This document shows, piece by piece, positions 52,628 through 54,397 of a stretch of 57,545 bases of DNA. Below the pieces are notes generated by a model. The model was not told where the DNA came from and searched no databases. It was given only the letters and a program-made list of their open reading frames with translations. The stretch is from Escherichia coli (lineage in GTDB: Bacteria > Pseudomonadota > Gammaproteobacteria > Enterobacterales > Enterobacteriaceae). Both the position numbers and the translations under genes were made by a program. How positions within the stretch are numbered: position 1 is the stretch's first letter; every line of letters begins with the position of its first letter. The DNA lies in NCBI RefSeq assembly GCF_003334765.1, contig NZ_QOWT01000027.1; one strand, given 5' to 3'.

Positions 52628-53680
52628 TTACCCGCGACGCGCTTTTACTGCATTCGCCAGTTGACGTAACAGAGCATCGGTATCTTCCCAGCCGATGCAG
52701 GCATCGGTGATGCTCTTACCGTAGGCCAGCGGCTCCCCGCTCTCGAGGCTCTGATTGCCTTCCACCAGATGGCTTTCCACCATCACGCCAATAATGGCCT
52801 TTTCGCCACCGGCAATCTGCTGGCAAACGTCAGCACAAACATCCATCTGCTTTTTGAATTGTTTGGACGAGTTAGCATGGCTGAAATCGATCATCACCTG
52901 TGCTGGCAGGCCTGCTTTGTTCAGCCCTTCTTTCACTTCAGCAACGTGCTTCGCGCTGTAGTTAGGCTCTTTACCGCCGCGCAGAATGATATGGCAATCG
53001 CCGTTACCGCTGGTATTCACAATCGCCGAATGCCCCCATTTCGTTACGGACAGGAAGCAGTGCGGCGCACCGGCGGCATTAATGGCATCGATAGCCACTT
53101 TAATCGTACCGTCGGTGCCATTTTTGAAGCCGACCGGACAAGAAAGCCCTGATGCCAGTTCGCGGTGCACCTGCGATTCGGTGGTACGTGCGCCAATTGC
53201 GCCCCAGCTCATCAGGTCAGCGAGATATTGTGGGGTGATCATATCGAGAAACTCACCTGCCGCTGGCAGACCGCTGTCGTTAATATCAAGCAGCAATTTA
53301 CGGGCTATACGCAGACCGTCGTTGATCTGGAAGCTATTATCCATATGCGGATCGTTAATCAGCCCTTTCCAGCCCACCGTGGTACGCGGCTTTTCAAAAT
53401 AGACGCGCATTACGATTTCCAGCTCATCTTTCAGCTCTTCACGCAGCGCCAGCAAGCGAGTGGCATACTCTTTTGCCGCGACAGGATCATGAATTGAGCA
53501 TGGGCCAATCACAACCAACAGGCGATCATCATTACCTTTCAGGATCTTATGGATCGCTTTTCGGGCATGGGCAACCGTATTCGCGGCATTTTCAGTAGCG
53601 GGGAATTTTTCCAGCAATGCGACAGGAGGAAGTAACTCTTTGATTTCTTTGATGCGTAAATCGTCGTTCTGATAATTCAT
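52628..53680 (-). CDS. aroG: 3-deoxy-7-phosphoheptulonate (DAHP) synthase, Phe-sensitive
   Basis: 350-aa ORF (MNYQNDDLRIKEIKELLPPVALLEKFPATE...). Confidence 0.9.
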   Translation of the reverse strand: MNYQNDDLRIKEIKELLPPVALLEKFPATENAANTVAHARKAIHKILKGNDDRLLVVIGPCSIHDPVAAKEYATRLLALREELKDELEIVMRVYFEKPRTTVGWKGLINDPHMDNSFQINDGLRIARKLLLDINDSGLPAAGEFLDMITPQYLADLMSWGAIGARTTESQVHRELASGLSCPVGFKNGTDGTIKVAIDAINAAGAPHCFLSVTKWGHSAIVNTSGNGDCHIILRGGKEPNYSAKHVAEVKEGLNKAGLPAQVMIDFSHANSSKQFKKQMDVCADVCQQIAGGEKAIIGVMVESHLVEGNQSLESGEPLAYGKSITDACIGWEDTDALLRQLANAVKARRG

Positions 53681-53750
53681 GTCTGTTCCAGTGTTGCCAT
53701 ACTTATCTTAGTGAATGCAATACTTCCAATCTATATCTTCCGTCAGAATG

Positions 53751-53768
53751 TGTAAACGGGGTTTTACA
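53751..53768. promoter_or_regulatory. TyrR box upstream of aroG
   Basis: tgtaaa-cggggt-tttaca matches TGTAAA-N6-TTTACA. Confidence 0.8.
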
Positions 53769-53995
53769 CTATGAACGGATTAATCCTGGAATTAGCAAGA
53801 AAAACGCCAGATTGTCGCGAAAAACGAGATCTCTCCTACAATTTCTAACTGTAACTCCTTTGTTTGTTAATTATTTCAAGATTCTCTGCTGCGTTTCATA
53901 ACCTGGCTGAAATCTTAAACCAATGCCTTATATTCACCTGCAAATGCACTGTTGGAAGAGGTTATCCGACATAACGACCATAACAGGAGCATCCT

Positions 53996-54376
53996 ATGAA
54001 AATGACAAAACTGGCCACATTATTTCTGACTGCCACTCTAAGCCTTGCCAGCGGTGCCGCACTGGCTGCCGATAGCGGAGCGCAAACTAATAACGGCCAG
54101 GCAAACGCCGCAGCTGATGCGGGCCAGGTAGCCCCTGACGCCCGTGAAAATGTCGCGCCAAATAACGTCGACAATAACGGGGTAAATACCGGTTCTGGCG
54201 GCACAATGCTGCATTCGGATGGTTCTTCAATGAACAATGACGGAATGACCAAAGATGAAGAGCACAAGAACACCATGTGCAAAGATGGTCGCTGTCCGGA
54301 TATCAATAAAAAGGTACAAACCGGTGATGGCATCAATAATGATGTCGATACCAAAACCGACGGTACCACGCAGTAA
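53996..54376 (+). CDS. ybgS: secreted low-complexity protein YbgS
   Basis: 126-aa ORF with signal peptide and N/D/G-rich body. Confidence 0.8.
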
Positions 54377-54397
54377 CCCTGCAAAATAGCCAATAAT

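Follow-up and report, generated by a model that had tools for sequence, protein, structure and literature searches.

YbgS of Escherichia coli, a stress-regulated periplasmic protein with a possible hydrophilin-type protective role

Introduction

What does the product of ybgS do in the enterobacterial cell, and is it connected with the zinc exporter gene beside it? ybgS is an Escherichia coli y-gene without an assigned function, despite the fact that its product gives a prominent protein peak in stationary phase. The gene occupies positions 53996–54376 on the plus strand of the 57,545-nucleotide stretch of E. coli DNA analyzed here (contig NZ_QOWT01000027.1 of assembly GCF_003334765.1), which we call the window. 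An earlier note on the window, made from the sequence alone, had described the product as a secreted, Asn/Asp/Gly-rich low-complexity protein with a probably disordered body, had likened it to metal- or stress-associated periplasmic proteins, and had pointed to the adjacent zinc exporter gene zitB. Our results and the literature together establish that the ybgS product is stress-induced, exported by the Sec pathway, disulfide-bonded, periplasmic and conserved in sequence. Of the earlier interpretation, the secretion, the disorder (as a prediction) and the stress association stood up to the analysis, and the tie to zinc did not.

The ybgS gene and its product

The open reading frame (ORF) was exactly as described earlier, with 126 codons followed by a stop codon, and the DNA around it is E. 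coli chromosome. In a Pfam scan, PF13985 (YbgS) was the sole family match (E = 8.6e-62, 207 bits, residues 3–126 aligned with positions 1–124 of the 124-position model). The name ybgS is confirmed by this match and by RefSeq, which labels the gene 'ybgS: YbgS-like family protein', and all peptides that the note had quoted were found in the translation. The coding sequence also has a low ratio of nonsynonymous to synonymous substitution rates (dN/dS, 0.029), and its Shine–Dalgarno sequence, AGGAG at 53985–53989 (+), stands 6 nt 5' of the ATG in an ACAGGAG stretch that is invariant in 16/16 aligned genera. Signal peptide, Cys pair and aroG/zitB synteny are shared with the YbgS-like family (PF13985; K-12 YbgS, UniProt P0AAV6), and we found zero differences: it is the same protein. 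ybgS is a known, annotated and monocistronic core gene of Enterobacteriaceae, and YbgS is the founding protein of PF13985. We regard the identity, the export and the stress regulation of YbgS as near certain.

The 801-bp ybgS region, 53700–54500, was found at ≥95% identity in 5426/5426 complete E. coli genomes. Altogether, 5432 genomic places matched it, two of them in plasmid-classed records, and the region occurs twice in a few genomes. An NCBIfam scan of YbgS gave sub-threshold matches only (CycA, MXKDX, TrbL and bacteriocin-like models), all far under their cutoffs, and the PADLOC defence models gave zero matches. We rejected a longer ybgS that would begin at an upstream in-frame start, as in the longer ORFs of Citrobacter, Superficieibacter and Pseudenterobacter, since in E. 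coli a TAA codon interrupts this frame 15 nt upstream, and from genus to genus the frame is displaced by indels.

The legacy label 'homeobox/DNA-binding protein' was also rejected, since Pfam gave only PF13985 and the protein is exported. The name 'homeobox protein YbgS' persists in UniRef entries, and a proteomics study from 2025 handled YbgS as a DNA-binding network driver (PMC12282026). The label, which is wrong for an exported and apparently unfolded protein, still misleads network analyses.

Export, processing and stress regulation of YbgS

The N-terminus of YbgS has the features of a Sec signal peptide (residues 1–24, encoded at 53996–54067 (+)), with K2 and K5, a hydrophobic stretch, A-L-A at positions -3 to -1 and a grand average of hydropathy (GRAVY) of +1.15; no twin-arginine motif was found in it. 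Published top-down mass spectrometry (MS) showed that the 24-residue signal peptide is removed after this A-L-A, leaving a mature protein of 102 residues (PMC8629258; PMC5594050). The signal peptide proposed in the note, which had named missing cleavage as the finding that would speak against it, is therefore supported both by the sequence and by spectra of the cleaved protein. A lipoprotein was rejected because there is no lipobox Cys, residues 1–94 contain zero Cys, and the mature N-terminus is Ala25 (PMC8629258).

Two independent studies inferred from MS/MS a disulfide bond between C71 and C76 of mature YbgS, corresponding to C95 and C100 of the precursor (PMC8629258; PMC5594050). The codons of the loop, C95-K-D-G-R-C100, lie at 54278–54295 (+). 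In our family alignment, which comprised 50 YbgS members from at least 20 genera, exactly two Cys residues were present in 50/50 members.

In the published spectra, YbgS was a prominent peak beside the stationary-phase proteins HdeA, HdeB and YahO (PMC8629258), and it was detected along with YmdF, YciG and YjbJ (PMC5594050). The protein was also recovered from supernatants of lysed or induced cultures (PMC8629258). In a study of vesicles, YbgS was present in those of a tolA mutant only and not in those of the wild type; the same table holds OsmY, SurA and TolB.

Expression of ybgS is RpoS-dependent in O157:H7 (table value 82; PMC2907692), and the gene is listed in the Crl regulon. A reply by Hengge refers to ybgS as a 'known target gene of RcsB' and cites it beside bdm in the context of biofilms. 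A LolCDE inhibitor, which blocks the sorting of lipoproteins, raised ybgS 15–32-fold, along with rcsA, wza-type capsule genes, cpxP and osmY-linked genes, and the colanic-acid genes wzc and wcaF as well as yjbEFG were co-induced in the same response. Acrylic acid raised it 5.4-fold, and ybgS was a hub among multi-stress upregulated genes, with osmY, dps and otsAB. When Salmonella adapted to an IncHI2 plasmid, mutations arose repeatedly in ybgS, and deleting ybgS made the plasmid slightly less costly to carry. Genetic interactions of YbgS with several partners have also been reported (PMC5594050). The stress association proposed from the sequence is well founded in the RpoS, Crl and RcsB evidence, the response to the LolCDE inhibitor and the tolA vesicles. 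The note had further made its proposal depend on the gene being expressed under some condition; ybgS is RpoS/Crl-dependent, an RcsB target and induced by envelope stress.

Composition and predicted disorder of the mature protein

Asn, Asp and Gly make up 41/102 residues of mature YbgS, compared with 16.2% in 48 long ORFs of the window (binomial P = 6e-9), and aromatic residues (F/W/Y) are altogether lacking (zero, P ~2e-4). The GRAVY value is -1.15, compared with -0.76 for the most hydrophilic long ORF of the window. The mature protein has an isoelectric point of 4.4 and a net charge of -8, with 16 acidic versus 8 basic residues and 28 Asn + Asp, and its Gly content is 12.7% (range in the family 8.1–14.9%). 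These properties extend to the family, where aromatic residues were absent from 50/50 members, the median net charge was -6, and Gly >6% together with GRAVY < -1 was found in 49/50.

On the charge–hydropathy plot of Uversky, YbgS fell on the unfolded side, with a mean hydropathy of 0.372 below the boundary of 0.441. AlphaFold2, run with the 50-sequence alignment, returned a mean predicted local distance difference test score (pLDDT) of 52 with zero residues above 70, and a predicted template modeling score (pTM) of 0.13. A profile searched against the Protein Data Bank at E up to 10 found zero relatives. We infer from these predictions that mature YbgS is intrinsically disordered; the disordered Asn/Asp/Gly-rich body of the earlier description is thus supported by the composition bias and by the pLDDT and pTM values.

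Hydrophilins are reportedly marked, by the criteria of Garay-Arroyo et al. 2000, by a Gly content above 6% and a hydrophilicity index above 1; we scored the latter as a mean Kyte–Doolittle hydropathy below -1. On both compositional points mature YbgS lies on the hydrophilin side (Gly 12.7%, GRAVY -1.15). The criteria of Garay-Arroyo et al. are cited in PMC5437024.

Conserved motifs and selection

Despite its biased composition, the mature protein does not vary freely. A conserved N-terminal motif covers residues 32–64 (54089–54187 (+)), in which N37 and P55 are invariant in the 50-member alignment and N33, G34, A40, A42, G43, P47, A49, N52 and N64 are ≥90% conserved. It is followed by a G/S/T/N-rich spacer (residues 65–83, 54188–54244 (+)) that holds nearly all indels between genera and ranges in length across the family from almost nothing to ~50 residues made up of T/G/S repeats. 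In Pseudenterobacter, Phytobacter and Superficieibacter (L060:4001-4492, L053:4001-4441 and L025:4001-4426), the spacer has grown into long Thr/Gly/Ser repeats such as TGTSATGTTGTTGTSATGTTGT. The C-terminal module, M.KDE.HKN.MCKDG[RK]CPD.NKKV.TG...TKTDGT.Q (residues 84–126, 54245–54373 (+)), has C95, D97, G98 and C100 invariant in the 50 members, and M84, H90, K91, N92, K96, P101, D102, K120, D122, G123 and T124 ≥90% conserved. The E. coli protein carries the C-K-D-G-[RK]-C loop and the TKTDGT[TS]Q tail of the family.

Compared with E. whittamii, where dS is not saturated (0.47), dN/dS of ybgS was 0.029, and the values for aroG, zitB and pnuC were 0.018–0.029. By this measure, purifying selection on ybgS is as strong as on its housekeeping neighbors. 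The compositional bias described in the note was borne out, and the body is not merely of low complexity, since it contains conserved motifs under purifying selection.

Rare E. coli alleles (P0003, P0004, P0005, P0010, P0011 and P0015, aligned to 53996–54373) represented in-frame slippage events, among them a GQANAAADA duplication, an SGAALAAD duplication over the cleavage site, and deletions of 4–9 residues. Most of these length changes were in the signal peptide, the N-terminal motif or the spacer. The exception was P0010 (105 member sequences), whose C-terminal tail (residues 111–125) has a gap of 2 residues as well as substitutions. The disulfide loop was untouched in every rare length variant.

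Two other readings of the C-terminal half were considered. The CKDGRC loop as an NGR/DGR homing peptide was dropped because Arg alternates with Lys at this position across the family. The MXKDX pentapeptide-repeat secreted proteins (TIGR02953) resemble YbgS in being small and having a signal peptide; YbgS has two MxKDx units, MTKDE and MCKDG, at a distance of five residues, a five-residue register can be made out in its C-terminal half, and TIGR02953 aligns to residues 78–116. Membership was rejected, however, at 12.6 bits against a curated cutoff of 41 (E = 0.098), and the resemblance may be due to chance.

Asn-Gly pairs are classic sites of spontaneous deamidation, and YbgS contains them at N33-G34 (54092–54097), which is ≥90% conserved, and in N60-N61-G62 (54173–54181). 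One top-down study found YbgS to be likely deamidated (+1.02 Da, position unassigned).

Distribution and gene order

A phmmer search of 1.84 billion representative proteins gave 61 matches, all of them YbgS proteins or fragments. A profile of the mature sequence matched 637 clusters, and among the matches listed (120 of 637) all were PF13985. In an alignment-based genome-wide scan, ybgS was present in 163 of ~100,000 species genomes. The genera include Escherichia, Salmonella, Citrobacter, Klebsiella, Raoultella, Enterobacter, Lelliottia, Kosakonia, Buttiauxella, Cedecea, Pluralibacter, Phytobacter and others, with outlier homologues in Rahnella, Nissabacter and Pantoea. Judged from these searches, the YbgS family is very small and confined to Enterobacterales.

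Some records carry other names. One locus labelled Chryseobacterium sp. 18061 (L014) has the full enterobacterial gpmA-aroG-ybgS-zitB-pnuC-nadA block, and two YbgS entries, P0186 and P0205, bear the names Providencia rettgeri (with 100% identity to the E. coli protein across the mature part that aligned) and Serratia marcescens (on a 2.8-kb contig). All three look like mislabelled or contaminated assemblies.

The local gene order in the window is galM, gpmA, aroG (-), ybgS (+), zitB (+), pnuC (-) and nadA (-). RefSeq annotates the downstream gene, at 54490–55431, as 'zitB: CDF family zinc transporter ZitB'. aroG (-) followed by ybgS (+) was found in 81/81 loci and 4 further contigs, zitB (+) and pnuC (-) were downstream of ybgS in 80/80 loci reaching far enough, and the six-gene block gpmA-aroG-ybgS-zitB-pnuC-nadA was syntenic throughout. 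The most divergent homologue, P0178 (L085:5001-5288), lies between aroG and pnuC without zitB beside it; it retains the N-terminal motif, and both Cys are missing.

A terminator scan located an intrinsic terminator of ybgS at 54398–54427 (+), GGGAGAG-CGGAGT-CTCTCCC and a T-run. The stem, at 54398–54417, has 7 bp, of which 5 are G-C pairs, and is followed by TTTTAATTTT. An equivalent GGAGAGC/GCTCTCC hairpin with a T-run was present 3' of ybgS in 16/16 genera, and the terminator that the note had assigned to ybgS is therefore real and conserved. Since it separates ybgS from zitB in all 16 genera, the two genes are separate transcription units and ybgS is monocistronic. In a published in vitro selection by genomic SELEX (systematic evolution of ligands by exponential enrichment), RNA polymerase holoenzyme bound within the aroG-ybgS spacer and at separate sites within the ybgS-zitB spacer.

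Possible functions of YbgS

Since mature YbgS appears to be disordered and has both compositional marks of a hydrophilin, a protective role is favoured. We tentatively propose that YbgS is a periplasmic hydrophilin-type protectant of the stress phase, and give this proposal a little less than an even chance of being correct. According to our results and the literature, ybgS is transcribed from the aroG-ybgS intergenic region under the control of sigma-S/Crl and the Rcs envelope-stress phosphorelay, with transcription stopping at its own terminator. YbgS is exported by the Sec pathway, loses its 24-residue signal peptide, and accumulates in the periplasm of stationary-phase or envelope-stressed cells, where the six-residue loop C95-KDGR-C100 is the sole covalent constraint of the mature chain. 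As a highly hydrated, negatively charged and non-aggregating hydrophilin, similar to late embryogenesis abundant (LEA) proteins, it could shield the proteins and surfaces of the envelope on a drop in water activity, turgor or outer-membrane integrity. The N-terminal motif and the disulfide loop may serve as contact sites for one or more envelope partners, with the G/S/T/N stretch as a flexible spacer between them, and YbgS would be functionally uncoupled from the zinc exporter ZitB.

Some known proteins resemble YbgS in these respects. YciG and YmdF are Lys/Gly-rich, whereas YbgS is acidic and Asn/Asp-rich. Like YbgS, the sigma-S hydrophilins YciG, YmdF and YjbJ are small, strongly hydrophilic proteins rich in Gly that depend on RpoS and abound in stationary phase, but neither the KGG-repeat family nor the YjbJ family was matched in the Pfam and NCBIfam scans of YbgS, so that no relationship in sequence was detected. 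In addition, these proteins show no signal peptide in the top-down data, where YmdF and YciG lose only the initiator Met (PMC5594050), whereas YbgS is exported and disulfide-bonded. OsmY shares with YbgS the periplasmic location and an overlapping regulation (the multi-stress hub, the tolA vesicles, the LolCDE-inhibitor response and the Salmonella plasmid-cost genes). OsmY is a folded protein with two BON domains; it has no homology to YbgS, for which no fold is predicted.

Several points weigh against a protective role. Neither a desiccation nor an osmotic phenotype of a ybgS mutant was found in the literature (the only phenotype being the IncHI2 cost in Salmonella), and osmotic induction of ybgS was not found documented in the accessible literature. 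The low pLDDT fits disorder without proving it. Purifying selection of this strength at the level of motifs is more typical of a protein with a specific partner than of a bulk protectant that works through its composition alone. Finally, generic protectants tend to be widespread, whereas this family is confined to Enterobacterales.

The possibility exists that disordered YbgS instead binds one particular envelope protein through the CKDG[RK]CPD loop and/or the N-terminal motif and modulates it under stress, candidates being a sensor of the Rcs or Cpx pathway, a protease, or a factor in the assembly of peptidoglycan or the outer membrane. We consider this main alternative unlikely on balance. 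The invariance of C95, D97, G98 and C100 and the ~20 positions that are ≥90% conserved in an otherwise unfolded protein, the dN/dS of ~0.03, and the tolerance of indels solely outside the loop all point to it. The narrow taxonomic range and fixed position of the gene would fit co-evolution with a lineage-specific partner, and the reported genetic interactions with several partners (PMC5594050) are in line with this. On the other hand, no partner is known and the neighboring genes offer no candidate; P0178 has the N-terminal motif yet neither Cys, so the loop is not indispensable everywhere; and the abundance of YbgS in stationary phase, where it gives a prominent peak in matrix-assisted laser desorption/ionization (MALDI) spectra (PMC8629258), is more in keeping with a protectant that acts stoichiometrically than with a signalling ligand. 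Protection and the binding of a specific partner are not mutually exclusive. Far less probable is that YbgS is released, for instance in vesicles, as a component or organizer of an Rcs-induced extracellular matrix or capsule, like other low-complexity secreted products of the Rcs regulon. Its co-induction with wzc, wcaF and yjbEFG on Rcs activation, the naming of ybgS beside bdm as an Rcs target in Hengge's reply, and the protein found in tolA-mutant vesicles and in supernatants of lysed or induced cultures agree with such a role, which we nevertheless regard as very improbable indeed: there is no secretion signal beyond Sec and no polysaccharide-synthesis gene nearby, presence in vesicles is expected of any abundant periplasmic protein, and no biofilm phenotype of ybgS was found in the literature.

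Could YbgS buffer or chaperone divalent cations (Zn, or Ca, Mg or Cu) in the periplasm and cooperate with the CDF exporter ZitB? The ligands would be the carboxyl and amide groups of Asp/Asn, or a cluster of Met84, His90, Met94 and Cys. The excess of acidic residues (16 versus 8 basic) and the 28 Asn + Asp are compatible with this, M84, H90 and the Cys pair form a conserved cluster, and ybgS adjoins zitB in every far-reaching locus but one. Nevertheless, we consider such a function very improbable. Co-transcription of ybgS with zitB was rejected because the intrinsic terminator stands between them in E. coli and in 16/16 genera, and RNA polymerase sites are found separately in the ybgS-zitB spacer. 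A co-occurrence of the two genes beyond synteny was rejected as well: adjacency is part of the frozen gpmA-aroG-ybgS-zitB-pnuC-nadA block, which as a whole leaves it without a specific functional signal, and locus L085 has ybgS with pnuC directly downstream and without zitB. Mature family members contain 0–5 His, none invariant (E. coli YbgS has two), three members have Asp in place of H90 and others have Gln, Ile or Ala in place of M94, and no EF-hand or DxDxDG calcium loop that fits was found by inspection of the YbgS sequence. The Zur box has a fixed spacing of 3, and a Zur-box reading of GTTAT-N5-ATAAC in the 5' untranslated region (UTR) was rejected, as the spacing here is 5–7 and varies between genera. 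ZraP, Spy, CpxP and ZinT are folded, and ZraP and ZinT have defined His-rich sites; they are small, periplasmic and induced by envelope stress like YbgS, but they have no homology to it (Pfam gave only PF13985), and YbgS is apparently unfolded, with an oxidized Cys pair and no invariant His. The pair is oxidized in the cell (PMC8629258; PMC5594050), and regulation is via RpoS and Rcs. In the open-access literature naming both ybgS and zinc, judged by title and abstract, neither a zinc response nor any other link between the two was found. The metal or zinc suggestion of the earlier note is thus unsupported, in view of the conserved terminator, the inherited synteny, the zitB-less homologue, the lack of an invariant His and the oxidized Cys pair. 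Of its remark on zitB, the position next to a zinc exporter gene is correct and a functional tie is unsupported; the apparent link with zinc is an artefact arising from the order in which these genes were inherited together.

Returning to the proposed hydrophilin-type protectant, a more elaborate version can be formulated, which we hold to be doubtful. In it, enteric bacteria would have in YbgS their first periplasmic LEA-like hydrophilin, an abundant, acidic and intrinsically disordered protein switched on by sigma-S and Rcs, protecting the envelope on drying, osmotic upshift or outer-membrane damage, and anchored to a partner by its loop, and a 5' UTR masking the Shine–Dalgarno sequence would add translational control. 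Evidence that YbgS protects the periplasm as a disordered protein, or that it is a ligand with a specific target in the envelope, would close a small gap in the picture of the RpoS and Rcs responses to stress, and its role may bear on the survival of enterics outside the host.

The region upstream of ybgS

The upstream region was compared in a 16-genus alignment, and box and -10-like motifs were counted over 86 loci. A candidate sigma-S-type -10 element, CTACAAT at 53836–53842 (+) with C at -13, lies in a gap-free conserved block and reads CTACAAT or CTACACT in 69/86 loci; we liken it to CTAYRCT with C at -13, which we take to be the sigma-S -10 consensus. The distance from this candidate to the ATG is 148–169 nt in most loci and 148–262 nt overall. 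The promoter assignments upstream of ybgS are inferences from such motifs. A sigma-70-like promoter, CTGAAA-16-TATATT at 53907–53934, was rejected as the main promoter because the stretch is unconserved between genera.

A palindromic box, ACGGATTAATCCTGGAAT, is located at 53775–53792 and has the core RGA-N4-TCY in 72/86 loci; in other genera it reads AGAATATTCCTGGAA. We label it RcsB-like because it resembles TAAGAATATTCCTA, presumably the RcsB box consensus, with which positions 53775–53788 agree at 8/14 positions in E. coli and up to 11/14 in other genera. The distance between the box and the -10-like element is 61 bp in 66/67 loci. The inferred transcription start is at about 53849, ~147 nt 5' of the ATG. 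The box would lie at approximately -67 from this start, not beside a -35, and it is equally well placed for aroG. As 53717–53860 is wholly gap-free, the box is not assignable to ybgS rather than aroG, and this candidate could serve ybgS, aroG or both. Farther upstream, a perfectly conserved palindrome, TGTAAA-N6-TTTACA at 53751–53768, overlaps the -35 (TTTACA) of a candidate minus-strand promoter of aroG, TTTACA-17-TAGATT (53756–53728); by its consensus we take it to be the aroG TyrR box.

In the presumed 5' UTR, an inverted repeat at 53878–53916 (+) could form a hairpin, with a minimum free energy of -9.2 kcal/mol in E. coli (z = -2.1). In ~10/15 genera a comparable hairpin is predicted here, its stem sequences differing between them, whereas Klebsiella, Raoultella, Cedecea and Buttiauxella lack it. 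Closer to the gene, the 5' UTR contains a nearly invariant block at 53945–53993 (+), in which the arm UGCACUGUU can pair with the Shine–Dalgarno region AACAGGAGCA according to the alignment and RNAalifold. RNAalifold gave 10 consensus pairs with almost zero covariation, and three genera diverge; single-sequence folds had z values between -0.7 and -2.3 in most genera, with positive values for Phytobacter (+0.2) and Pluralibacter (+0.6). The conservation of the block is clear, and the predicted pairing could represent a translational mask or a target of a small RNA. A search of 53600–54550 against Rfam at E up to 1 gave only a chance match to MicX (17 bits against a gathering score of 75).

Other observations in the window

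ZitB, encoded at 54490–55431, is His-rich at both ends and has the C-terminus GHSHHHH; mature YbgS has two His. Two further ORFs overlap ybgS: an antisense ORF of 143 codons at 53962–54393 (-), which spans the whole gene, and a 50-codon ORF in another frame at 53923–54075 (+), which overlaps its start. Both are probably by-products of ORF listing.

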